IMG/VR virus record: IMGVR_UViG_2740892372_000013
Location: 1 to 10,013 of that record
DNA from: a virus
Lineage: Duplodnaviria > Heunggongvirae > Uroviricota > Caudoviricetes
Strand: one strand, 5' to 3'
DNA: 10,013 nucleotides
The stretch's first letter is position 1, and each line of letters starts with the position of its first letter. Below the pieces are notes generated by a model that saw only the letters and a list, made by a program, of their open reading frames with translations, did no database searches and had not been told where the DNA came from. The translations under genes and the position numbers were made by a program. This document shows, in pieces, positions 1-10,013 of the stretch.

Positions 1-85
1 GGTCTTTCCTCGTTACCAGTGCCGTCACTATGACGGTTAAACAGATGACGATCAGGGCGATTAGCATCGCCTTTTGCTGCTTCAT
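1..85 (-). CDS. hokD: Hok/Gef-family type I membrane toxin, 5' part only (first 28 codons; gene runs off the window start)
   Basis: Reverse complement of 1-85 translates from ATG (83-85) as MKQQKAMLIALIVICLTVIVTALVTRKD, the hydrophobic N-terminus typical of Hok/Gef peptides and matching my memory of HokD/RelF. AGGAG lies 9 nt upstream of the ATG. Paralog assignment is from memory; family assignment is firm. Confidence 0.7.
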   Translation of the reverse strand, partial: MKQQKAMLIALIVICLTVIVTALVTRKD

Positions 86-406
86 AGCCTGCTTCTCCTT
101 GCCTTTCGGCACGTAAGAGGCTAACCTACGTGTGTAGAGCATAGATATGGCCTCAGATTAATGTTAAGCGTCTTGCCGGACGCGTAATGTTAACTGGGGC
201 TTTTCTCTATCTGCCTTTTGGTGTTCATGCCTGAGACAGATAGCCTCAAGCACCCGCAGCAATTTTACTTAACTCCCCTTTTCCCACAAATCGTTTTTAT
301 CCCTATTGGTAATGTTCTCCCGATGTGGGATTCCCACATTGGAACGAATTCAATCAGTTAAAGACTCATCAGAATCTCACCTTTCTAAGTGCCCACAGGT
401 GAGGCA

Positions 407-435
407 TTGCAATAAAAATAGCAAACGTGTATAAA
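407..435 (+). promoter_or_regulatory. Candidate sigma70 promoter for the kinase/phosphatase operon
   Basis: TTGCAA (407-412), 17-nt spacer, TATAAA (430-435) preceded by TG. Predicted only by eye against the consensus. Confidence 0.25.
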
Positions 436-495
436 AGGAGGTAATGCATGTTTTTCCAGTCTTATCAATCCATTACTGAGAGTTAAGGGGGCGCC

Positions 496-1290
496 GTGGA
501 TCGGTGCGGTAATTATTTACTTAAAGATGGTCGCAGTTTAGGACAAGGGAGTTTTGGCGAAGTATTTAAGGTTGATGTCTATAACTTAACCCAGACCCAC
601 ATGACCACATATGCTCGCAAATACTTTTCACCTTGCCCGGACTTTGACAAGACCGCTATAAAAGAGTTGACTGATTTAAGACAGCGTTTTTTAGTTGAGA
701 TCAAAACACAATGCACTCTCAATAGAATAAACTATGATTCAATAGCGCCAATAGTTTTATTTAATACAAATGGTGATAAACCTTATTTTGTTATGGAATT
801 GGCAGAGTGTAACTTATATGAAGCCATCCGCAATGGTATGAACTACGCGGAGAGGAAGTCTGCTGTTACTCAGATTTTAAAAGGAATTATCACCATACAT
901 GAAAACAACTATATACATCGTGATTTAAAACCAGGAAACATACTTTATTATGCCGATGGAAAGTATAAAATATCTGATTTTGGTCTAGTAAAAGACAGAG
1001 ATACCTTACGGGCCGAAATCAAAACAAAATTTAAGCCTAATCACATGGGCACAGATGGATATCGAGCGCCCGAAATACATGATAGCGGTCTTTTTTCTTT
1101 TCAAAGTGACATATTTGCAGCAGGTAAAATTATCACTGATATATATCCCACAGAAAGAAGTGAAAAATTAAAAAGATTGATTGCAAAATGTTGCGCACAT
1201 TGGCCTGAAGAACGATATCAAAGCACACGGGAGTTACTGGAAGATTTTTTAAAAGTGACGGGGGAGGTAAATCATGAAGAACATAATTGA
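496..1290 (+). CDS. Eukaryotic-like (Hanks-type) Ser/Thr protein kinase, catalytic domain only, 264 aa
   Basis: GTG start with a GGGGG Shine-Dalgarno. Glycine loop LGQGSFGEV (res 15-23), beta3 lysine in YARK (K42), catalytic loop HRDLKPGN (141-148), DFG (161-163), and activation-loop GTDGYRAPE (APE 191-193). The gene is AT-rich relative to the flanking DNA. Confidence 0.85.
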   Translation: MDRCGNYLLKDGRSLGQGSFGEVFKVDVYNLTQTHMTTYARKYFSPCPDFDKTAIKELTDLRQRFLVEIKTQCTLNRINYDSIAPIVLFNTNGDKPYFVMELAECNLYEAIRNGMNYAERKSAVTQILKGIITIHENNYIHRDLKPGNILYYADGKYKISDFGLVKDRDTLRAEIKTKFKPNHMGTDGYRAPEIHDSGLFSFQSDIFAAGKIITDIYPTERSEKLKRLIAKCCAHWPEERYQSTRELLEDFLKVTGEVNHEEHN

Positions 1291-1990
1291 AATGGCATGT
1301 TTTAGCCTAAAACAACCCCAAAAAAAAGAAAATGAAGACTTTTATTTACCGCCATCTTTTGATAGCGATTTTAACATTGTCTTTGCAGTAGCTGATGGGG
1401 TTGGTTCCTCTGAACATTCAATGCTTGCATCTCATGCAGCCATTCGTGGCATTAGACACACGCTAGGCACTTCCTTTTTCTCAATTGAAAGTGCATTTCA
1501 TTCAGCTAAAAAAGAAATTGACAATTTAGATATTAGCACTGCCACAACCTTAACAATTGTTCAGATCAAAAAAAATGAAGTGTTAATTGGTCATTCCGGT
1601 GATTGCCGAGTATACTTCAATAAAAACAATAAACTAAATCAGTTAACCACTGATCAAACGAGATATCAAGAACTCCTTGATTCTGGTGAACATAAATTAC
1701 GTAATTTAAGAAATCATAAAGAACGGCTATCTTCAGTCCTAACGAATGCTTTATCAAATACAACGGATTTGAATTTTGAGTTAATGTCTTTTCCGATTAG
1801 CCAGCTAATTTATAATGGCTATCTTCAACTCTATGCAATGACTGATGGTGCCTATAAGCATTGGGATGTCAGACCAAGGTTTTCTGAGAAGACAATGCTC
1901 TCACCAACAGCTTTTGCGAGTAGTTTAAGAAAAAGGATTGAGAAAAACATAATGGATGATTACACCTTTATAGGCGTAAAAGTAACCTAA
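1274..1990 (+). CDS. PP2C-family (PPM) Ser/Thr protein phosphatase, 238 aa
   Basis: ATG preceded by GGGGAGGT at 5-nt spacing; overlaps the kinase 3' end by 17 nt. Motifs FAVADGVGS (D41-G44, PP2C motif 1), GHSGDCRVY (GDSR-like, D110), LTTDQT and YAMTDGAYK (D191-G192), in the same order as bacterial PP2C such as PrpC/Stp1. Confidence 0.8.
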   Translation: MKNIIEMACFSLKQPQKKENEDFYLPPSFDSDFNIVFAVADGVGSSEHSMLASHAAIRGIRHTLGTSFFSIESAFHSAKKEIDNLDISTATTLTIVQIKKNEVLIGHSGDCRVYFNKNNKLNQLTTDQTRYQELLDSGEHKLRNLRNHKERLSSVLTNALSNTTDLNFELMSFPISQLIYNGYLQLYAMTDGAYKHWDVRPRFSEKTMLSPTAFASSLRKRIEKNIMDDYTFIGVKVT

Positions 1991-2143
1991 TTTTAGATAT
2001 CCAAGATATTTACTCTAATTTAACCATAGTATTCCCAACCTCTTTTTATTGGGGGTTGGGTTCATTAAAGTCACCATTTTCTATTTCTTTCCCGTTAGAG
2101 GATATATTATTTCCAGATAAAGAAAGCAACTTCTTATGCAACT

Positions 2144-2248
2144 TCATATCACGCCATGCTTCCACCGCGGTAACTCTACATAGTCCATTAACAGTTCATG
2201 CCATTCTTCAAAATTGGCGTTATATTTAGTTGAAGCAAAATCAGCCAT
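2144..2248 (-). pseudogene. Truncated and diverged copy of the 58-aa small ORF (34 codons)
   Basis: MADFASTKYNANFEEWHELLMDYVELPRWKHGVI. The first ~26 codons align with copy B (3570-3746), then homology is lost at the junction with the AT-rich island. Confidence 0.3.
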
Positions 2249-2249
2249 T

Positions 2250-2423
2250 TTATTCTTCCTCTTCGTCTTTTATTTCGTGATATGAGTAATTGCAGTAGTT
2301 AAAGAAAATATCTTTTGCTTCGTCATGTATTTCATCAGGCGTCGCATCATCATCCACTTCGAATTCATCCTCGAAATCTCCACCGGCTATTCCCGTTTCA
2401 ATAATTATTTTGAACTTTCGCAT
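2250..2423 (-). CDS. Small highly acidic protein, copy A (57 aa)
   Basis: MRKFKIIIETGIAGGDFEDEFEVDDDATPDEIHDEAKDIFFNYCNYSYHEIKDEEEE. Differences from copy B are two synonymous changes plus a stop in place of Gln58. Confidence 0.5.
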   Translation of the reverse strand: MRKFKIIIETGIAGGDFEDEFEVDDDATPDEIHDEAKDIFFNYCNYSYHEIKDEEEE

Positions 2424-2470
2424 TTAACTACCGCCCTGCCGGACAGCCTCCTGATGTTCTGAGGGCGCCT

Positions 2471-2480
2471 CCCCCCCCCC
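2471..2480. repeat. Homopolymeric C10 tract (G10 on the coding strand) between ORF118A and acidic ORF A
   Basis: Ten consecutive C; the paralogous position in copy B (3969-3977) has nine. Confidence 0.9.
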
Positions 2481-2519
2481 TCCGGTTAAGGATTAAATTT
2501 TTAACAGAGCTAAATTTAA

Positions 2520-2876
2520 TTATTCAGTTCTGGATTTTGTCGCCCTGCGTATCCGCGCTTTCGCGTTACGCTCAATCTGAATTAGCTTTTCTATATTTTT
2601 TCGCCTTTCCCGCTCCTCCTGACGCAAGAGCCTTACATCATCTGCCAGTCTGGTTTCTCTTTTCGCCACAGAGAGCATCCAGTCAAATGGCTCCACAACT
2701 GCACCGCAGATTTTACAGCGGACCTGACGCTCTTTTTCGTCAACCCGGACAGAGGCGTGATGGCAATATGGTCTTTCCGATGGCTCATAGAGAAAATTAA
2801 CCTGATTACGTGGGTCATCCTCTTTTACCGGAAATAAAACGATATTGCTTAACTCATCTTCTGGTTTTATTTCCAT
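2520..2876 (-). CDS. Hypothetical prophage protein with Cys/His zinc-ribbon-like motif and basic coiled-coil tail, copy A (118 aa)
   Basis: GGAGAGGAG immediately 5' of the ATG. Motif C-H-H...C-x2-C (PYCHHASVRVDEKERQVRCKICG) and an Arg/Lys/Glu-rich C-terminus. Protein is identical to copy B; all 3 nucleotide differences are synonymous third-position changes. Confidence 0.7.
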   Translation of the reverse strand: MEIKPEDELSNIVLFPVKEDDPRNQVNFLYEPSERPYCHHASVRVDEKERQVRCKICGAVVEPFDWMLSVAKRETRLADDVRLLRQEERERRKNIEKLIQIERNAKARIRRATKSRTE

Positions 2877-3573
2877 GCTCCTCTCCTTTGATGCGAATGC
2901 CAGCGGCGCGGATTGCAGCGATGACTTCAGAAACTTTGTATGCCATTACCGTTTGGTAATCATCGTGAAAATCTGTTCGATGAAGCATGCTGCTACGTTC
3001 TGGGAGCGATATTTCCCGTGCTTCCAGTTCTGCAATGCGCTTCTCTGCGGATTCCAACGCCGCAACCAATTCGTCTACAGTTCCGGCAGCTTGCAGTGCG
3101 TAATCGGTAATAGCCATCTCATGATCAATTTCAGTACCGTTCTCATTCGTTGAGGTGATAGCAAAATAATCAGAGTCGATTTCGTTATCAGCTAAGTGGC
3201 GTAGCGTATCGGCAACAAGCCGGCCGTTTTCGATTAGCAGCTTCCCTTCCGTAAGCGCAATCTCCTCGTTCTCCTGGTCGCGTGATTTGATGTATTGCTG
3301 GTTTCTTTCCCGTTCATCCAGTAGTGCCAGCGCAACATTTGGATTAAAGGCAGCAATAAATTCAGCGTTTGCGTAAGCCTGAGCATCTGTTTCAACCAGG
3401 CAGTTAACATGACATTCTGCAATTACGCCACCGGGCTCTCCTTTCCATTTTTGACAAACAAAAACTCCTGTTATATTCCCATGCTGATTGCCCGATGTAT
3501 GCCCTACGATGTAGCATCCTTTAGTTGCTTTCTCTGCTGCTTCACGCAGCGCCTGATAGTCAATCTCGCTCAT
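2854..3573 (-). CDS. Ead/Ea22-like prophage protein (239 aa)
   Basis: N-terminus MSEIDYQALREAAEKAT and the segment DAQAYANAEFIAAFNPNVALALLDE resemble the conserved N-terminal region of Ead/Ea22-like lambdoid proteins (from memory). Central coiled-coil ELVAALESAEKRIAELEAR. Its ATG overlaps the stop of the upstream small ORF (ATGA). Confidence 0.6.
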   Translation of the reverse strand: MSEIDYQALREAAEKATKGCYIVGHTSGNQHGNITGVFVCQKWKGEPGGVIAECHVNCLVETDAQAYANAEFIAAFNPNVALALLDERERNQQYIKSRDQENEEIALTEGKLLIENGRLVADTLRHLADNEIDSDYFAITSTNENGTEIDHEMAITDYALQAAGTVDELVAALESAEKRIAELEAREISLPERSSMLHRTDFHDDYQTVMAYKVSEVIAAIRAAGIRIKGEEHGNKTRR

Positions 3574-3746
3574 TCATCGCCCCACTCATCACAATATGCT
3601 TCGACCGGATTTTTTCCTGCTTCATAATCATCACGCCATGCTTCAGCATCAGCAGCACTGCCACCACGTAACTCTGCATATTCCATTAACAGTTCATGCC
3701 ATTCTTCAAAACTGACGCTGTATTTAGTTGAACCAAAATCAGCCAT
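3570..3746 (-). CDS. Small acidic hypothetical protein (58 aa)
   Basis: MADFGSTKYSVSFEEWHELLMEYAELRGGSAADAEAWRDDYEAGKNPVEAYCDEWGDE. Start overlaps the end of acidic ORF B by 8 nt; stop overlaps the Ead-like ATG. Not in the ORF track (under 60 aa). Confidence 0.4.
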   Translation of the reverse strand: MADFGSTKYSVSFEEWHELLMEYAELRGGSAADAEAWRDDYEAGKNPVEAYCDEWGDE

Positions 3747-3921
3747 TTTGTTCTTCCTCTTCGTCTTTTATTTCGTGATATGAATAATTGCAGTAGTTAA
3801 AGAAAATATCTTTTGCTTCGTCATGTATTTCATCAGGCGTCGCATCATCATCCACTTCGAATTCATCCTCGAAATCTCCACCGGCTATTCCCGTTTCAAT
3901 AATTATTTTAAACTTTCGCAT
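3739..3921 (-). CDS. Small highly acidic protein, copy B (60 aa)
   Basis: ORF track entry; roughly 40 percent Asp/Glu. Conserved with copy A through synonymous-only changes except the C-terminal stop/Gln difference. Confidence 0.55.
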   Translation of the reverse strand: MRKFKIIIETGIAGGDFEDEFEVDDDATPDEIHDEAKDIFFNYCNYSYHEIKDEEEEQNG

Positions 3922-3968
3922 TTAACTACCGCCCTGCCGGACAGCCTCCTGATGTTCTGAGGGCGCCT

Positions 3969-3977
3969 CCCCCCCCC
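3969..3977. repeat. Homopolymeric C9 tract, paralogue of the C10 tract
   Basis: Nine consecutive C at the position equivalent to 2471-2480. Confidence 0.9.
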
Positions 3978-4016
3978 TCCGGTTAAGGATTAAATTTTTA
4001 ACAGAGCTAAATTTAA

Positions 4017-4373
4017 TTATTCAGTTCTGGATTTTGTCGCCCTGCGTATCCGCGCTTTCGCGTTACGCTCAATCTGAATTAGCTTTTCTATATTTTTTCG
4101 CCTTTCCCGCTCCTCCTGACGCAAGAGCCTTACATCATCTGCCAGTCTGGTTTCTCTTTTCGCCACAGAGAGCATCCAGTCAAATGGCTCCACAACTGCA
4201 CCGCAGATTTTACAGCGGACCTGACGCTCTTTTTCGTCAACCCGGACAGAGGCGTGATGGCAATATGGTCTTTCCGATGGCTCATAAAGAAAATTAACCT
4301 GATTACGTGGGTCATCCTCTTTTACCGGAAATAAAACAATATTACTTAACTCATCTTCTGGTTTTATTTCCAT
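4017..4373 (-). CDS. Hypothetical zinc-ribbon-like basic protein, copy B (118 aa; ORF track extends it to a GTG at 4430)
   Basis: Same protein as copy A. The ATG at 4373 has GGAGAGG directly upstream and is the start shared with copy A, so the 19-codon upstream extension is probably not translated. Confidence 0.7.
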   Translation of the reverse strand: MEIKPEDELSNIVLFPVKEDDPRNQVNFLYEPSERPYCHHASVRVDEKERQVRCKICGAVVEPFDWMLSVAKRETRLADDVRLLRQEERERRKNIEKLIQIERNAKARIRRATKSRTE

Positions 4374-4445
4374 GCACCTCTCCTTTGATGCGAATGCCAG
4401 CGGCAATTGAAGCCTGATAGCTAATTTCACTCACAGCACCACCTC

Positions 4446-4826
4446 CTAAAAATTCCCCTGACAGAACGCCAGTACACGCTGCATAACTTCGCTATTTCGG
4501 CACTCACTGCAAATTATGTTCTGATGCCTGTCATAGCGGCGTATTTCTCCGTCTGGTAACTTTCGAATCAATGTCTGGTCGGTTGTTTTCTCCGCTGCCT
4601 TACGCCATACGCGATACACCTGTTCTGATGCAAAAACACCGTATTTACCGGGCATGTATAAATCGCCACAAGCCAGTACATCCACAAGGCAACGTCTGAC
4701 TGAATGCCAGCCTGCTCCCGTCGCTCTCTCCAGTTGTGATATCGTCATGCGTTCATTTTTGCGTACCAGCCCGATAATTCGGGCCTTCAGTTCTTCACGC
4801 TGTTCGTGTGTAAAAGGTTTCGCCAT
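4446..4826 (-). CDS. Hypothetical prophage protein, possible winged-helix fold (126 aa from ATG; track lists a TTG start at 4841)
   Basis: ATG at 4826 preceded by GGAGG at 5-nt spacing. The stop of the upstream gene (4842-4844) lies in this ribosome-binding region, suggesting coupling. Confidence 0.6.
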   Translation of the reverse strand: MAKPFTHEQREELKARIIGLVRKNERMTISQLERATGAGWHSVRRCLVDVLACGDLYMPGKYGVFASEQVYRVWRKAAEKTTDQTLIRKLPDGEIRRYDRHQNIICSECRNSEVMQRVLAFCQGNF

Positions 4827-4841
4827 AAGCGCCTCCGGCAA

Positions 4842-5612
4842 TCACTTTTCCGACACAATACGACCGGATGAATCGACAATCTGCCGAACAATATCCCGGT
4901 GCTTGTTCAGCTCCCGCAGCGCGGCGCAGACACGCTCCCACTTCTGAACCTGACCTTTTGCCCGGCGCAGCTCGCGGTTAGCCACATGCAGCGATGGTAA
5001 AATCAGACCATCCGGATGTTTTCTGGTGAACAACGGCTGTGACTGCACTGTGACCGCCACACTTTCAGTTTTTATTTCTTCCTGTGTTGCGGCTTCCCGG
5101 ACTGGTAACGCAGCACCTGCTGGCTGAGGAAAGGCCTTACCATCATTTTCCGTTACCAGCGCGGCTTTCGGCTCTGCTGGTAAATTATCGCCCGGCATGC
5201 AGTAACGAAATCTACCGTTCTGATTAACGCGTGCCAGCCGCCCCGTTGCGGTTACCACCGCCAGCGTGGAAGCAACCTTGCGAGTACTGACACCGAACTT
5301 ACCCGCTATTTCTTCACAGGTTTTAGCCCCCTCCTGAGCGATAAACTCAATCATCATGTTAGCGCTAACTTTTGGAGCGACCTCTTCGGTCAGCATATCC
5401 TGTGTTTCAGATTTTACTGGCCGCTCTTCGGTTACCCGGGATTCACCTTCGACAGCCAGAAACCAGGTGTGACCCGTTTTATCAACAACGCCATTTTTTT
5501 TGAGCTCCCACAGTTCGTTGAGAACTTCTTCACGGCTGATATCAATTCGTGCCGCCAGTTCAACAGAATTGGCTTTACCCATCGCTTTCAGTGCATGCAA
5601 TACGGTTTCCAT
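4842..5612 (-). CDS. Hypothetical prophage protein with two predicted helix-turn-helix / winged-helix segments (256 aa)
   Basis: GGAGGA upstream of the ATG. Segments NSVELAARIDISREEVLNELWELKKNGVV and KTCEEIAGKFGVSTRKVASTLAVVTATG look like DNA-binding HTH. No family recognised with confidence. Confidence 0.65.
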   Translation of the reverse strand: METVLHALKAMGKANSVELAARIDISREEVLNELWELKKNGVVDKTGHTWFLAVEGESRVTEERPVKSETQDMLTEEVAPKVSANMMIEFIAQEGAKTCEEIAGKFGVSTRKVASTLAVVTATGRLARVNQNGRFRYCMPGDNLPAEPKAALVTENDGKAFPQPAGAALPVREAATQEEIKTESVAVTVQSQPLFTRKHPDGLILPSLHVANRELRRAKGQVQKWERVCAALRELNKHRDIVRQIVDSSGRIVSEK

Positions 5613-5645
5613 TAAAACTTCCTCCGGATAAAAATACTTCTCAAA

Positions 5646-6308
5646 TCAGACAAAACCAGCCGCTTTCCGGCGTTCATACTCCTGTTTCAGCAACTCAATT
5701 GGCGTTGGTCCCAACGGGCGTTTTGGTGCCGCCAGTTGTCGCCGTACTGGCGGAACGCTCATCCCGTTACCAACATGCTTTGCCCATTTCGTCAGTTGCC
5801 GTTCCGCAAGTCGTTTTAACTCGCCCTGCGTCATCTGGCGCTCAATCCCTCTGGTACGCATTTCGAGGCAGATGTGGTACAGCACAGGCTGTGGCCACGG
5901 GTATTTATCACTCCCGTCGTATCGCCAAGATTCATTGCGCCAGCGCCGATACTCTTCCATCACGGCATCCACCGTAAGACCAAATGGATTTGCCCCACTC
6001 TCCGAAATCAGCGCAACAAACTCAGCCAGGTCCGGGGGCCACGTTTCACCCGCCCGGCAGCGGTCCATGCACTGACGGCACACCAGACGGATTTGCTGTT
6101 CAGTCATCGCACCAATCTGGGCAATCCAGAGCTTCGAAGGTGCGGCCCCGTTCTTCTGAGTCCAGCGGTTCGAATACACCTCCCCCATGAGCTCCCACAG
6201 CTTCCAGGCCGTTTCCGTTGCTGATAAATCCGTTGTCACGTTCCCACTGTTCGCGTGCAGCCCGGATTTCCTGAACTGCCCGTGATGCCGTGCCACCTGA
6301 TGCTGCAT
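5646..6308 (-). CDS. Lambda P-like replication protein (helicase loader); start codon uncertain
   Basis: By-eye alignment to lambda P: WPPDLAEFVALISE versus FLPSPGQFVAWCRE, DKYPWPQPVLYHICLEM versus ESYPWKSNAHYWLVTNL, and the GELKRLAERQ...PPVRRQLA tail. The track start at 6308 has a GGGGGAAG ribosome-binding site but overlaps the O-like gene by 209 nt; in-frame ATGs at 6188 and 6107 are alternatives. Confidence 0.7.
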   Translation of the reverse strand: MQHQVARHHGQFRKSGLHANSGNVTTDLSATETAWKLWELMGEVYSNRWTQKNGAAPSKLWIAQIGAMTEQQIRLVCRQCMDRCRAGETWPPDLAEFVALISESGANPFGLTVDAVMEEYRRWRNESWRYDGSDKYPWPQPVLYHICLEMRTRGIERQMTQGELKRLAERQLTKWAKHVGNGMSVPPVRRQLAAPKRPLGPTPIELLKQEYERRKAAGFV

Positions 6309-7137
6309 GGCTTCCCCCCTTGCTGACTGGTTTTACCTGTGCCCTGACGTGCTGCACGTGGCGGGCAAATTTCTGCTCCCACTGAACCTGCGTGAAAACC
6401 TTCCCCTCCGCCATCCAGTAATCCCGGAATGCGGCAAGCTCAGCAGGTGTAAATTCCGGCTCAGGCAGAGCCATACCCCACACTGCTGCCCGTTGTCGAA
6501 AATCCGGCGACGGCTGCCAGACAGTAGTCATCGAAAATTTCCCGATCGGTTCGCTCAGGCCGTCCAGGTATTCAGGTTCGGCTGTCTGCAACGGCGCACC
6601 ATTCGACTCACTGGTCGGAATACTCTCGCGCGCGTTATGTGTGGGGTTTAATTCTGTATCTGTATCTGTATCTTTATCTGTCGTGACTTGTCGTGACAGA
6701 TGCGTGACACGTCGTGACTCATCGTGACAATCAGCATTATGTTTCCGCAGCTTTTCCCGCTCCCGCTGCGCTCTCTTGCGCTCTGCCGGGGATTTTGCCG
6801 TTTGCGAAACGTTACCATTGTCCTCTTTCAGCACCTGACGTTTTTCCCATCCGGAAATAAGGTCACCATCCAGAACCCGCCCCTGCATTGCATGCAAAAT
6901 TGAATCAATTACGTCTTCCGTCACATCAAGCGCACTTGCTAAATCTTCCGTCGTGACATCAATGTGACCACGTAGTGACACGCCGTGACATGTCGTGACA
7001 TTTCGTGACGCGCTCACCAGAAGATGGATATACACTGCCATCACTGTTGCGATTGGCTGTCCTGATACCCTGGCAATCGTTCGCCACTTGGGGTCATTTG
7101 GCATGTCATGCCACAATCTGAGCCAGGCATTAGCCAT
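6100..7137 (-). CDS. Replication initiator (O-like) protein, about 345 aa (track lists a GTG at 7143)
   Basis: Sits immediately upstream of the P-like gene. Has a low-complexity acidic linker (TDKDTDTDTE...) and two internal arrays of iteron-like repeats in its 5' half, as for ori inside lambda O. ATG at 7137 preceded by AGAGGTGA. Confidence 0.6.
   Translation of the reverse strand: MANAWLRLWHDMPNDPKWRTIARVSGQPIATVMAVYIHLLVSASRNVTTCHGVSLRGHIDVTTEDLASALDVTEDVIDSILHAMQGRVLDGDLISGWEKRQVLKEDNGNVSQTAKSPAERKRAQREREKLRKHNADCHDESRRVTHLSRQVTTDKDTDTDTELNPTHNARESIPTSESNGAPLQTAEPEYLDGLSEPIGKFSMTTVWQPSPDFRQRAAVWGMALPEPEFTPAELAAFRDYWMAEGKVFTQVQWEQKFARHVQHVRAQVKPVSKGGSHAASGGTASRAVQEIRAAREQWERDNGFISNGNGLEAVGAHGGGVFEPLDSEERGRTFEALDCPDWCDD
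6651..6728. repeat. Iteron-like array 1: three TCTGTA hexamers followed by five (T/G)CGTGAC heptamers at 10-11 bp spacing
   Basis: CGTGAC at 6682, 6692, 6703, 6713 and 6723. TCTGTA at 6653, 6659 and 6665. Confidence 0.8.
6951..7009. repeat. Iteron-like array 2: six GTGAC-core repeats at 10-11 bp spacing
   Basis: GTGAC cores at 6953, 6964, 6975, 6985, 6995 and 7005, all on the same strand. Confidence 0.8.
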
Positions 7138-7205
7138 ACTCACCTCTTCTGATACCGAACTTTACCCACGAACTTCCGAAAGAAATCCGGTATAAATATT
7201 GTTGG

Positions 7206-7631
7206 TCAATGCACAACAACTGCATTACCAGGCTGACCACCACTGTTAGTCAGGGTGCCCCAGGCGATCGCTACAGCGACAAAATCATCCACATCTTTCA
7301 CCAGCCGATCCCGTCGTTCGACGATCTCCCGGTAATATTCAGAACTGTGACTGCGCATACGGGCCACCAGCAAAGGCGGCATCGCCTTTTCGATCGCCGG
7401 TAACAGCGCCTGAATTTTTTCAACCGCATCAGGCGTATCCTTCTCCACCCAGCGGAAAATTTTCTGGGTATTACGGGCCAGGGCTTCCGGATGGCTGTCG
7501 TCGTACAGTTCCGGGAACGTCATCCCAAGTTCGAAATAAGTCCGGGCTATTTCAGCTGCAGGCACTTTCTCACCATCAGGATATGCCCAGGCATTCATCG
7601 CCATGCGGATGTGTTCATGTTTGATTTTCAT
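7206..7631 (-). CDS. YdaT-family prophage regulator (CII-position protein), 141 aa
   Basis: Starts MKIKHEHI and ends VVVH, as I recall for YdaT-family proteins. Lies directly downstream of the cro-like gene with an ATGA start/stop overlap, as in the ydaS-ydaT arrangement. Confidence 0.55.
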   Translation of the reverse strand: MKIKHEHIRMAMNAWAYPDGEKVPAAEIARTYFELGMTFPELYDDSHPEALARNTQKIFRWVEKDTPDAVEKIQALLPAIEKAMPPLLVARMRSHSSEYYREIVERRDRLVKDVDDFVAVAIAWGTLTNSGGQPGNAVVVH

Positions 7632-7855
7632 GAATCATTTTTCCTTTCGTTCGAGGTGTTATCCTTCTTTTTGTAAAGTTCTGGGTTCAACGATAATTTT
7701 CCCTTGGAGTATGCAACTGCTTCAGCAGCCCTCCCCTTGGGAACTATTTCGCCGGGACGCTTACGCCACATGTATATAGCTTCTCGGGTTACCCCATAAA
7801 AATCAGCGACTCTTTGGACAGAACCAAAAAACTGGACAAGTTCATCAACTCGCAT
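7628..7855 (-). CDS. Cro/DicC-like small HTH repressor (75 aa)
   Basis: Divergent from the cI-like gene. Motif FFGSVQRVADFYGVTREAIYMWRK is typical of Cro/YdaS/DicC HTH proteins. AGGAGA ribosome-binding site. Confidence 0.7.
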   Translation of the reverse strand: MRVDELVQFFGSVQRVADFYGVTREAIYMWRKRPGEIVPKGRAAEAVAYSKGKLSLNPELYKKKDNTSNERKNDS

Positions 7856-7954
7856 TTCGCTCTCCTTAAAACTAAGTATTTTTAGATTAAAGGGTAATTT
7901 TTTTTAGGTCAATACAATCTAAAATAATTTATATTCAATTCGCGGGAGAAAATA
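7856..7954. promoter_or_regulatory. Divergent promoter/operator region (OR-like) between the cro-like and cI-like genes
   Basis: TTGACC on the minus strand (7907-7912). 17-mer AAATAATTTATATTCAA (7922-7938) overlaps a TATATT -10 for cI (7930-7935). Inverted repeat TTTTAGATT (7880-7888) / AATCTAAAA (7916-7924). Confidence 0.5.
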
Positions 7955-8599
7955 ATGGAAAGCCTTGGCATTAGGCTTAAGAAACTCAGAAAAGACAAAG
8001 GTCTGACCCAAGTTGAACTTGGCAAGCTTTCTGGCGTAACTGGGGTAACAATAGGATACTGGGAGAAAGATCTAAACGAACCAGGTAGCAAAGCTCTTAG
8101 TAAATTAGCCCTAGCACTAGGCACTACTGAGTCCTATCTCCTGTATGGAGTATCATCACCTGAATCATCCCTTGTGCAGAAAAATCCAGGTACCCAAATC
8201 CCATACCTTTCTTGGGGAGAAGCGATTTCTTTCCTAATATTAAAAGGAGAGAAAACTATGGGAAATGTCGACAGGATCACCACATTCTTTGATGTCAAGG
8301 AGGGAGATTTTGCCGTTTCAATGCCTGATGATACTATGCACAATCCATCAGGGTCCCCAAGCATTCCAGTTGGAGCCACAGTGATCATGAGGCCTGGCGA
8401 AAAATATAAAAATGGTAGCATCGTCGCAGTAATAGTCCCAGATCCACTCACAAACGAACCATCCATGACTATAAAAAAATTAGTTATTGATGGAAAGCTC
8501 GTGTACTTAGCCCCCCTTAACCCACGCTATCAATCATCCTTACTTACACCGGAATGTAACATCGTTGCTGTAGCAAAAGGTGTTCAGTTCAGCCTCTAG
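7955..8599 (+). CDS. CI-like phage repressor (N-terminal XRE HTH plus C-terminal S24 LexA-type autopeptidase domain), 214 aa
   Basis: HTH LTQVELGKLSGVTGVTIGYWEK. S24 signature Ser in FAVSMPDD and Lys in TIKKLVIDG. Divergent to the cro-like gene. Confidence 0.85.
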   Translation: MESLGIRLKKLRKDKGLTQVELGKLSGVTGVTIGYWEKDLNEPGSKALSKLALALGTTESYLLYGVSSPESSLVQKNPGTQIPYLSWGEAISFLILKGEKTMGNVDRITTFFDVKEGDFAVSMPDDTMHNPSGSPSIPVGATVIMRPGEKYKNGSIVAVIVPDPLTNEPSMTIKKLVIDGKLVYLAPLNPRYQSSLLTPECNIVAVAKGVQFSL

Positions 8600-8650
8600 C
8601 TCCCGCTTTGCCCTGTAATCAGAGGTCGGCTTTGTCGGCCTTTTATCTTA

Positions 8651-8699
8651 AAAATATTTATATTCAACTTGACAGCAAAACTAAATATTCTTATATTCA
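8651..8699 (+). promoter_or_regulatory. PL-like early promoter with two flanking operator-like repeats
   Basis: TTGACA (8669-8674), 17-nt spacer, TATATT (8692-8697). AAAATATTTATATTCAA (8651-8667) and AAATATTCTTATATTCA (8683-8699) closely match the 17-mer at 7922-7938. Confidence 0.5.
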
Positions 8700-8872
8700 T
8701 TGCAACCCACCCCGCTTCACAGAATGCAGGGCAATACTTCGAGTTACCCGGCAGTGGTCAGGGGTTAAGTAGCCAGCCCGAGGCGTATGAACATGACGGC
8801 GGGAACACTTTGTATAACAGCGCAGCAGGTTTTTAGTTCCGCGACCCGGCGTTAAGGGGGAATGAGGTCAAC

Positions 8873-9025
8873 ATGGATACGCTCAATCTTGGCAACAACG
8901 AATCTCTGGTATGCGGCGTGTTTCCCAACCAGGACGGTACGTTCACCGCGATGACGTATACCAAAAGCAAAACGTTTAAAACTGAAGCTGGCGCGCGTCG
9001 CTGGTTAGCCAGAAACACTGACTGA
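8873..9025 (+). CDS. Small hypothetical early protein (50 aa)
   Basis: MDTLNLGNNESLVCGVFPNQDGTFTAMTYTKSKTFKTEAGARRWLARNTD. GAGGT ribosome-binding site 4 nt before the ATG; TGATG stop/start overlap with the next gene. Reminiscent of small YdfA/YdaF-type prophage proteins, from memory only. Confidence 0.45.
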   Translation: MDTLNLGNNESLVCGVFPNQDGTFTAMTYTKSKTFKTEAGARRWLARNTD

Positions 9026-9675
9026 TGAGGTTGACGATGGAATTTAAAGATTTACCTCCTTCAATCCAGGAGATTGCAGCACACACACTTCGTCATCGTC
9101 TGAACGAACTTGAATTGGAATCGGTAACGAAAAAAGACACTGATAATATGGCTCGTAATGTGCGCGATGCGTTTACCGGATTGTATTTCTGTGCGTCTAT
9201 AAATAAACACGACTCAGAGAGTATGGCAAATAAAATTGCAGAAACGACAGCGCAAAACATCAATACGAAACCAACGGAAGAAGAAATTGATCAGTTTGCT
9301 CATGATGCTGGTTTAAAAAACAAGAAAGAAAAATCGCCATATGCGGGGAACATGTTTGTTTATGACAATCTCATCAGAATTCGTGGCGAAATTCCGGCGG
9401 AATACCTGGCAAGAGTCCATCAGGCATTGCTTAAAAATTTGGAAACAGAATTATTTGATGGCAACACTAACGGTTTCTTCATGGTATCAGGCCTTGAGAA
9501 AGACTGGGATGCAGAAAAACGCTGGAATGTTGCTACATGGTTATTCAGTAACAGAGCCGCTGCACTGGAAGCTTCGGCATGTATTTGCGGCCTGTTCTTA
9601 ACAGACCACAAATATAATCTGGATGTGTACAGTTATATTTACGCTGAACACGGTCCACTCTGGATTGACTGGTAA
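9025..9675 (+). CDS. Hypothetical early-left operon protein (216 aa; the ATG at 9037 with GAGG upstream may be the true start)
   Basis: Long ORF, translationally coupled to the preceding small ORF. No recognisable motifs. Confidence 0.55.
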   Translation: MRLTMEFKDLPPSIQEIAAHTLRHRLNELELESVTKKDTDNMARNVRDAFTGLYFCASINKHDSESMANKIAETTAQNINTKPTEEEIDQFAHDAGLKNKKEKSPYAGNMFVYDNLIRIRGEIPAEYLARVHQALLKNLETELFDGNTNGFFMVSGLEKDWDAEKRWNVATWLFSNRAAALEASACICGLFLTDHKYNLDVYSYIYAEHGPLWIDW

Positions 9676-9885
9676 TTATAAGGAAACACCAGCAGGGCCG
9701 CGGCGACCAACAGAACGATTAAAATCAATAATGCCATTATAAAGGACATTATTTAATTTATCGTCGAATGCTGATTCTGTGAGCCTCAACTCTGAATGAG
9801 TTTTTAATAACCCTGATTGCCTGAGTTGATTTACCAGGCATTCAATCTGTTTTTCAATAAGCGGATTTCTTTTTTTGTTTGGCAT
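9676..9885 (-). CDS. Hypothetical small protein (69 aa from the ATG at 9885; track lists 73 aa from 9897)
   Basis: GGAGGA directly upstream of the ATG at 9885. Convergent with the 216-aa gene, with abutting stop codons (TAATTA). Confidence 0.45.
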   Translation of the reverse strand: MPNKKRNPLIEKQIECLVNQLRQSGLLKTHSELRLTESAFDDKLNNVLYNGIIDFNRSVGRRGPAGVSL

Positions 9886-10013
9886 TTTATCCTCCATTGA
9901 GGTTCTGGGTTAAAAATGGAGACCAACACGCTGTCACGTGTGGTCGTGCGCCGGACACGGATAAGAATCCGGTACTGACAGTTTACTGAAAGGATATTTC
10001 CCTGAAAAGTCAG

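Follow-up and report, generated by a model that had tools for sequence, protein, structure and literature searches.

Why should a prophage carry a protein kinase and, overlapping it, a phosphatase? The question is raised by a stretch of 10,013 nucleotides (the window), comprising positions 1 to 10,013 of IMG/VR virus record IMGVR_UViG_2740892372_000013 (Caudoviricetes). Near its left end, a gene for a Hanks-type Ser/Thr kinase runs into one for a phosphatase of the PP2C family. An initial annotation, made from the letters of the sequence, suggested that the two might form a self-contained switch for defense or host takeover. Comparison with homologous loci indicates that the pair is a co-inherited, autonomous, and horizontally mobile unit lodged in phage accessory slots. 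By analogy with two known defense systems, KKP (kinase-kinase-phosphatase) and TerY-P, the chances are about even that it acts as a toxin/antidote phosphorylation switch that excludes other phages. The features that bear most directly on the question are these.

300..2158, + strand: AT-rich cargo block with the kinase-PP2C operon, unique to this prophage type; edges drawn from GC content and alignment
407..435, + strand: candidate sigma-70 promoter, TTGCAA-17 nt-TATAAA, read by eye; a match to consensus only
485-491, + strand: Shine-Dalgarno sequence of the kinase gene, AAGGGGG, read from the sequence
496..1290, + strand: bare Hanks-type (eukaryotic-like) Ser/Thr kinase, RD-type; GTG start, 264 amino acids, 795 bp; activation-loop residue T177
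1263-1267, + strand: Shine-Dalgarno sequence of the PP2C gene, GGAGG, read from the sequence
1274..1990, + strand: Ser/Thr phosphatase of the PPM/PP2C family; ATG start, 238 amino acids, 717 bp; begins 17 nucleotides inside the 3' end of the kinase gene
2034..2060, + strand: hairpin with a 10-bp stem, 44 nucleotides past the PP2C stop codon; RNAfold gives -17.2 kcal/mol for 2026-2075

How close is the association between the two genes? Loci were gathered around kinases, 80 from species-representative genomes, 80 from IMG/VR, and a reference E. coli region (L001), for 161 altogether, and a kinase was considered to belong to the family if it matched the window kinase over its length with at least 34% identity. 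A PP2C homologue lies directly downstream and on the same strand in all 93 loci with a family kinase, and 66 of the 68 more distant generic kinases have none. Approached from the side of the phosphatase, a full kinase is found upstream in 73 of 78 loci, the remainder being one locus cut by the end of its contig and four with kinase remnants only. The initial annotation had proposed a survey of homologous pairs, and the pairing comes through it well. Pairwise identities of the kinases track those of the phosphatases (r = 0.84, a value as high as this in 0 of 2000 Mantel permutations).

The family loci and L001, when clustered at 90% identity, fall into 40 lineages. The kinase and PP2C genes overlap by 4 nucleotides in 24 of them, and the junction lies between -28 and +7 nucleotides in all but one. 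In the window, the PP2C start codon (ATG at 1274) precedes the kinase stop codon (TGA at 1288-1290), giving the 17-nucleotide overlap originally read. As judged from this arrangement, translation of PP2C is coupled to that of the kinase, and the phosphatase would be produced only along with translation of the kinase message. Beyond these two, no gene is conserved among the 40 lineages; the commonest other neighbor is found in 10 of them.

The two exceptions among the 68 distant kinases, L018 and L025, are of greater length, and each is likewise followed by a PP2C. At L018 (5815-7847), a 438-amino-acid kinase with a C-terminal extension of about 180 amino acids is followed, with a 4-nucleotide overlap, by a PP2C of 239 amino acids. 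Because of these two, kinase-then-PP2C coupling reaches beyond the minimal family.

The kinase gene encodes what is, by its motifs, a complete and catalytically intact RD-type Hanks kinase. Its match to Pfam Pkinase (PF00069) is strong (E = 1.4e-31, 110.3 bits against a gathering score of 31.7 bits), and all the motifs that had been named in the initial annotation are not only present but invariant in an alignment of 25 homologues reaching down to 34% identity: G18 and G21 of the G-loop, K42, E68, H141-R142-D143, N148, D161-F-G163, A191-P-E193, D205, and R240. The sequence HRDLKPxN, together with GT in the P+1 loop, marks Ser/Thr specificity. All 37 lineages with full-length kinases have Thr or Ser at one position of the activation loop, T177 in the window. 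A structural model from AlphaFold2 (AF2) shows a single bilobal kinase domain (a pLDDT, or predicted local distance difference test, of 88 and a predicted template modeling score [pTM] of 0.86), with disorder confined to the activation loop (171-178) and the six C-terminal residues, and resembles solved kinases with template modeling (TM) scores of about 0.72-0.77. Pfam finds only kinase-domain families in the 264 amino acids, with no FHA domain, cold-shock domain, or C-terminal extension, and neither Pfam nor the model shows a secretion signal, a transmembrane segment, or a sensor domain, the last two of which would find no room. The kinase had been described at the start as lacking sensor, transmembrane, and regulatory domains, and it is indeed a single bare domain. 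The edge of the kinase family is sharp, the bit score falling from 136 to 86.

The phosphatase, by sequence, is a complete Mn/Mg-dependent PP2C. It matches PP2C_2 (PF13672) with E = 1.4e-10 (41.5 bits against a gathering score of 24 bits) and the Stp1/IreP PP2C model with E = 8.6e-19, under that family's cut-off. The DGVGS, GDCR, and TDG motifs noted earlier are present, and the residues that define them are invariant in an alignment of 25 homologues whose lowest identities are 31-34%: D22, D41-G42 (DGVGS), T91-T92, G109-D110 (GDCR), D127, D191-G192 (TDG), and D228-D229. The AF2 model (pLDDT 94, pTM 0.91) has the canonical PP2C fold, as the kinase model has the canonical kinase fold, and resembles PstP, tPphA, MspP, and Stp1 with TM scores of about 0.75-0.78. 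Here, too, a protein of 238 amino acids could hold no further domain, whether sensor, membrane, or regulatory. Profile searches and monomer structures, both called for at the outset, thus come down on the side of the proposed enzymes, and both appear catalytically competent. Since profile similarity, conserved catalytic residues, and co-conservation are all found, the two genes are taken to constitute a real functional pair.

Among 1.84 billion representative proteins, the PP2C family amounts to about 21 clusters (at 50% identity) that score at least 189 bits; lower scores merge into a generic PP2C continuum. The best match of the PP2C in PHROG is phrog_5650, a profile of 565 positions to which it aligns only at 273-517. 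A fused kinase-PP2C form, which that profile suggested, was discarded: the kinase does not match it.

If one of the two proteins is dangerous, which is it? The way in which copies decay points to the kinase as the harmful one. At five or so independent loci (L095, L098/L177, L147, L220, and L221/L222), the PP2C is intact but the kinase has been truncated or frameshifted. The sole reverse case is L085/L175 (IMG/VR UViG_2529292906_000015), in which the kinase is intact (100% identity) and the PP2C is disrupted by two frameshifts, both within runs of poly-A. Either the frameshifts are errors of sequencing or the locus is a natural mutant that has lost its antidote. The role of reset or antidote first suggested for the phosphatase fits both this decay, in which it is the kinase that is lost, and an RD kinase with a conserved Thr or Ser in its activation loop.

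The cassette may also carry the signals for its own expression. The candidate promoter at 407-435 is absent from the list produced by a promoter scan of 1-2600, because the scan demands a -10 hexamer with T as its sixth base; the sites found by that scan are no more frequent than in shuffled sequence. The hairpin beyond the PP2C gene is likely the terminator of the operon, though the T-tract that follows is weak. Terminator-like hairpins are found within 200 nucleotides downstream of PP2C in 28 of the 40 lineages, compared with 17.5% of random windows (p ~4e-13), and the gap upstream of the cassette has a median length of 240 nucleotides in the 40. As for the features expected of a phage moron, an added transcription unit of deviant base composition that has its own promoter and terminator and separates genes adjoining each other in related phages, GC content is deviant in every lineage (40/40 more AT-rich than their flanks, by -8.6 GC points on average), hairpins are enriched downstream, and a promoter-like site can be seen by eye; the slot in related phages is not empty and holds other cargo. 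A mini open reading frame at 448-486 (12 codons, MFFQSYQSITES, with a perfect AAGGAGG Shine-Dalgarno sequence) was considered as a leader peptide and set aside, as it is unconserved even in relatives at 81-92% identity.

The orientation of the cassette is pertinent here. It points against early rightward transcription, and, being antisense to the early operon, would need a promoter of its own and would be expected to be expressed in the lysogen. After induction, it would be opposed by early transcription, as would be expected of an exclusion gene.

Where is the cassette found? The whole cargo block is rare among complete genomes of E. coli, with 33 carriers in 5426, mostly Shiga-toxigenic (STEC) and enterotoxigenic (ETEC) strains. 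The exact proteins of the window occur on at least 1000 contigs in a wider collection, always under generic names, and a kinase profile confirmed relatives on 112 viral contigs of IMG/VR. Carriers include pathogens (STEC, ETEC, Vibrio, Photorhabdus, Xenorhabdus) as well as environmental Shewanella, Ferrimonas, and Photobacterium. Recurrent neighbors are genes for lysozyme, Rz or DUF2514 spanin, holin, antiterminator Q, small terminase, and portal protein, and also an S24 CI-like repressor, KilA-N/P22 antirepressor, DUF968, RusA, and DNA methylase. The slots vary. One is directly after Q and before the holin gene, where Stx phages carry Stx, and the inducible Cronobacter phage phiES15 has its copy there. 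Others are immediately past the lysis cassette (lysozyme/Rz) and ahead of terminase, next to the S24 CI-like repressor (L006, L012, L099) or the KilA-N/P22 antirepressor, and within a Mu-like head module (L008). In a few cases, the cassette is found outside of prophages. In Stutzerimonas chloritidismutans (L013, 11586-16471), the setting is that of a defense island, the pair adjoining a complete Hachiman system (the HamB helicase and a HamA that has a Cap4-nuclease domain), and elsewhere it accompanies a ter operon and an AAA_13 ATPase (Buttiauxella), follows rpoBC (Actinobacillus), or sits among metabolic genes (Serratia).

No name or description of the two-gene form was found in papers or databases, where the labels are only 'serine/threonine protein kinase' and 'PP2C family phosphatase', nor was any published account found of a two-gene family tied to WP_000373318, WP_000789359, or phage phiES15. 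The remark of the initial annotation that the pair is not a named system therefore stands. Its novelty, however, was overstated: modules of kinase plus PP2C have already been validated in defense, namely KKP (PMC11341870) and, according to a later paper, TerY-P (PMC11090510).

KKP (PfpC-PfkB-PfkA), which joins two kinases and a phosphatase, is carried by Pf6, P2, P4, and Mu-like prophages (Guo et al., Nat Commun 2024, PMC11341870). There, Hanks kinases are countered by a PF13672 PP2C as antitoxin, and inhibition of this phosphatase by T4 Gp59 sets off defense; the kinase activity phosphorylates proteins of replication, translation, and division (PMC11341870). A single kinase by itself is neither toxic nor active, and FHA and cold-shock domains are required (PMC11341870). 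The window cassette is similar in being borne by prophages of Gram-negative hosts, in joining a Hanks kinase to a PF13672-type PP2C in one short operon, and also in the logic proposed for it, with the kinase as toxin and the phosphatase both as antitoxin and as the place where phage is sensed. It differs in having two genes in the order kinase-PP2C, with one bare kinase, whereas KKP has three in the order PP2C-kinase-kinase. Traits of KKP were sought without success: there is no second kinase in the window, no third gene that is conserved across the 40 lineages, and no FHA or cold-shock domain. The published survey of KKP demanded triplets of genes of 900-1300 bp (PMC11341870) and could not have caught the window family, because genes of 795 and 717 bp fall under that filter. 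The cassette is set apart from KKP by its architecture rather than by sequence comparison with PfpC, PfkA, and PfkB. Derivation from the KKP kinases was considered and rejected; the nearest kinases outside the family (P0085-P0120), beyond the drop in score from 136 to 86 bits, lack both FHA and cold-shock domains.

The TerY-P triad was reportedly described by Anantharaman in 2012. A TerY-P-like module of kinase plus PP2C, found in defense contexts, is a validated stand-alone anti-phage system (Gao 2020, as cited in PMC11090510), and according to the citing paper the system depends on a vWA protein of the TerY-like type and on a kinase with a C-terminal zinc ribbon or OB fold. Both it and the window pair join a PP2C phosphatase to a Ser/Thr kinase. 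The window pair, unlike TerY-P, has no vWA protein, and its kinase has neither zinc ribbon nor OB fold. A TerY-like vWA protein is not among the genes conserved across the 40 lineages, and the open reading frames of the window are phage early genes. A vWA-TerF protein does occur near L002, at that locus only, as part of a separate ter operon. The cassette therefore resembles KKP and TerY-P but, as far as its sequence tells, belongs to neither: it is a distinct, minimal two-gene variant, with a function to be argued from its relatives.

PD-T4-6 (Vassallo, 2022), Stk2 (Depardieu, 2016), and Stk of phage 933W are said to be defenses made of a single kinase gene. All three resemble the window kinase in using a Hanks-type kinase, theirs as anti-phage effector, and 933W Stk is likewise cargo of a lambdoid prophage. 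They differ in lacking a partner phosphatase and in being larger, with extra regions. The profile of PD-T4-6 (PDLC04047) matches the window kinase with E = 1.2e-32 and 111 bits, only over positions 16-202 of 327 and with generic Pkinase giving 110 bits, and the window-family kinase is never found alone. Stk2 gives 87 bits over partial coverage, which is no better than generic Pkinase. With 933W Stk, identity is 27% and confined to the C-lobe (E = 5e-10), and where the window kinase has HRD, Stk has HFD; the place of Stk in the immunity region downstream of cI is also different. Of the precedents first offered, then, 933W Stk and Stk2 are related at the level of the domain and no further.

Finally, the housekeeping pairs PknB/PstP, Stk1/Stp1, and PrkC/PrpC are the closest solved structures. 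They share with the window pair the folds of the enzymes and their pairing in an operon, and their PP2Cs reverse the activation-loop phosphorylation of an RD kinase. Their kinases, however, are membrane receptors with PASTA or other sensors, the usual order is phosphatase-kinase, and they are core genes of the chromosome. NCBIfam scores fall far short of the cut-offs of these families, at 89 versus 450 bits for the kinase and 68 versus 230 bits for the phosphatase.

How might a bare kinase and its phosphatase exclude phages? RD kinases generally need phosphorylation of the activation loop, a step that is undone in bacteria by PP2Cs like PstP and Stp1, so the residue equivalent to T177 is the likely point of control. 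In a lysogen, PP2C would continually strip the kinase of its activating autophosphorylation, as well as removing stray phosphorylation from substrates, and the cassette would be silent. Upon infection by another phage, perhaps a phage product would block or outcompete PP2C or else activate the kinase directly. The kinase so freed would phosphorylate host proteins, phage proteins, or both, those needed for replication, translation, or division, growth would stop, and the infection would be aborted. The kinase would then be the toxin, and PP2C both antidote and sensor. The same switch could also affect the prophage's own decision regarding lysogeny. It is a possible view, if on balance a somewhat doubtful one, that a bare Hanks kinase and a translationally coupled PP2C are enough by themselves for a full immune system of toxin and antidote, based on phosphorylation and smaller than any other of the kind, in which PP2C is a guarded sensor that invading phages disable and which temperate phages have spread across the Gammaproteobacteria, including Shiga-toxigenic E. 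coli. What stands firm of the self-contained switch first proposed is strict co-conservation, coupling, and residence in accessory and defense hotspots of prophages; defense, toxicity, and takeover are brought in by analogy.

Several considerations weigh against an exclusion switch. The PP2C matches no PADLOC defense model (E <= 0.1), and the defense-kinase models that match the kinase do so no better than generic Pkinase. With neither a sensor nor a target-binding domain, the bare kinase allows no prediction of trigger or target, and because a single KKP kinase is inactive and nontoxic without its FHA and cold-shock domains, a lone bare kinase may behave differently. The asymmetry of decay amounts to about five events versus one, some of which may be errors of sequencing. 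For most lineages, cassette and phage late genes run in the same direction, an arrangement that also fits a role in lytic growth.

Might the pair serve the prophage in some other way? Perhaps the balance of kinase and PP2C sets the phosphorylation of an H-NS/StpA silencer, a repressor, or an antirepressor and so tunes induction or the cross-talk between coresident prophages. KKP acts in this way through MvaU, a protein of the H-NS family (PMC11341870). The cassette's position directly beside S24 CI-like repressor or KilA-N/P22 antirepressor genes in several lineages would suit such a regulator, as would its residence in polylysogenic STEC and ETEC, the STEC strains holding many lambdoid prophages. 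The variety of its positions (after Q, after lysis genes, in a Mu head module, in islets apart from prophages) would be unusual for a core regulator, and since it is missing from most related prophages, as the 33 E. coli genomes out of 5426 indicate, it must be dispensable. Regulation of the life cycle is compatible with a role in defense; as the explanation of the pair it seems unlikely.

A part in lytic growth would have the kinase, made from a late or early transcript, phosphorylate host proteins, including those of defense, with PP2C limiting the damage or its timing. The co-orientation with late genes just described, at sites flanked by Q and holin or by Rz and terminase, is what one would expect, and the kinase of phage T7 (T7K) broadly disarms host defenses by phosphorylation (PMC13645617). 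T7K, however, comes from an unrelated kinase family and has no partner phosphatase, and a kinase used for takeover or counter-defense would not need an obligatory, stoichiometrically coupled antagonist. Neither the antisense orientation of the window cassette, nor the long upstream gap and separate terminator that are usual in the family, nor its presence outside of prophages, as beside Hachiman, sits well with this role, which we consider distinctly improbable. That the pair is a bacterial module of signaling or virulence (an effector kinase or stress-response pair) with no role toward phages and merely carried by prophages is very improbable indeed, for though it is present in pathogens (STEC, ETEC, Vibrio, Photorhabdus, Xenorhabdus) and NCBIfam finds a weak likeness to the LegK1 effector kinase and to the Stk1/Stp1 pairs, these similarities are at the level of the domain and far under the family cut-offs, neither a secretion signal nor a transmembrane segment nor a sensor domain is present, and the family extends to the environmental genera named above and to many viral contigs.

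Should the pair be a working defense or toxin-antidote module, then the FHA and cold-shock domains of KKP, and the vWA protein and OB fold or zinc ribbon of TerY-P, would be dispensable for phosphorylation-based immunity. Two proteins, about 500 residues in all, would provide a model for how a phosphatase senses infection and which kinase substrates stop a phage. Kinase-plus-PP2C defense modules of prophages are already known; the minimal two-gene form is of interest mainly as a very simple model of phosphorylation immunity and as cargo of lambdoid STEC prophages. Competition among the lambdoid prophages of STEC and ETEC, and their induction, control the biology of Shiga-toxin phages, and because the cassette is cargo of such prophages, it could affect which phages superinfect or are induced in these strains. 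The models that defense finders now use appear to miss it, as the failure of the PP2C to match in PADLOC illustrates.

The surroundings of the cassette in the window account for its boundaries. Two features lie to its left.

1..85, - strand: 5' part of hokD, a type I toxin gene, outside of the cassette; the - strand from 85 reads MKQQKAMLIALIVICLTVIVTALVTRKD
86..300, no strand assigned: hok/sok/mok regulatory flank, common to Rac-like prophages; the left edge of the cargo block is at about 273-312

Annotation of hokD at the matching position in NC_013353 agrees with the first of these, and in 933W the region matching the second is annotated as the SokW antisense RNA. The window aligns at 92-95% to phage Rac over 1-272, to vB_EcoS-813R8 over 1-302, and to vB_Apl-pPE4 over 1-312, where similarity ends; it restarts for all three at 2159. 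In each of the three, different small genes fill the slot, and because related phages share both flanks and hold other small genes between them, the slot is one for variable cargo and not the site of a simple insertion. GC content is 0.34-0.37 over 400-2200, compared with 0.45-0.59 in the flanks. The AT-rich block of about 2 kb recognized at first is thus real; the span of 190-2140 given to it began slightly too far to the left and ended about 20 nucleotides short of 2158 on the right.

To the right of 2250, the genes of the early operon are on the - strand, opposite to the kinase-PP2C pair: DUF7167, DUF977, DUF1627, replication P/O-like, YdaT, and Cro. The pair does, then, stand opposite to the operon and next to a hok toxin gene, as had been said. 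The matching stretch of E. coli O103:H2 12009 is annotated with DUF7167, DUF977, DUF1627, replication protein P, a DnaT-like protein, YdaT, and Cro, after which comes a repressor on the + strand, and the prophage there is integrated at ompW. From this flanking gene content, the pair is placed within a Rac/lambdoid prophage, between the replication genes and the hok-nin-Q region.

The right flank holds a direct duplication of 749 bp (2159-2907 and 3658-4404, 97.6% identity), the first copy of which begins exactly at the end of the cargo block. Each copy has a DUF7167-like open reading frame (57 and 60 amino acids) and another of 118 and 137 amino acids, and the copies flank an open reading frame of 239 amino acids (2854-3573). 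In the otherwise identical region of O103:H2 12009, one copy only of the duplicated genes is annotated. Each copy also has an intergenic poly-C tract, C10 at 2471-2480 and C9 at 3969-3977. On the - strand these are poly-G tracts about 48 nucleotides upstream of the start codon of the DUF7167-like gene, and they may vary through strand slippage.

Farther to the right is an immunity region (7206-8599) with genes for a YdaT-like protein (7206-7631, - strand), a Cro-like protein (7628-7855, - strand), and, divergent from the latter, an S24 LexA/CI-like repressor (7955-8599, + strand). The repressor, at 214 amino acids, is longer than the product of the 408-bp gene annotated at the matching place in O103:H2 12009, and because the lengths differ, the window is taken to come from a mosaic relative and not from that prophage itself.

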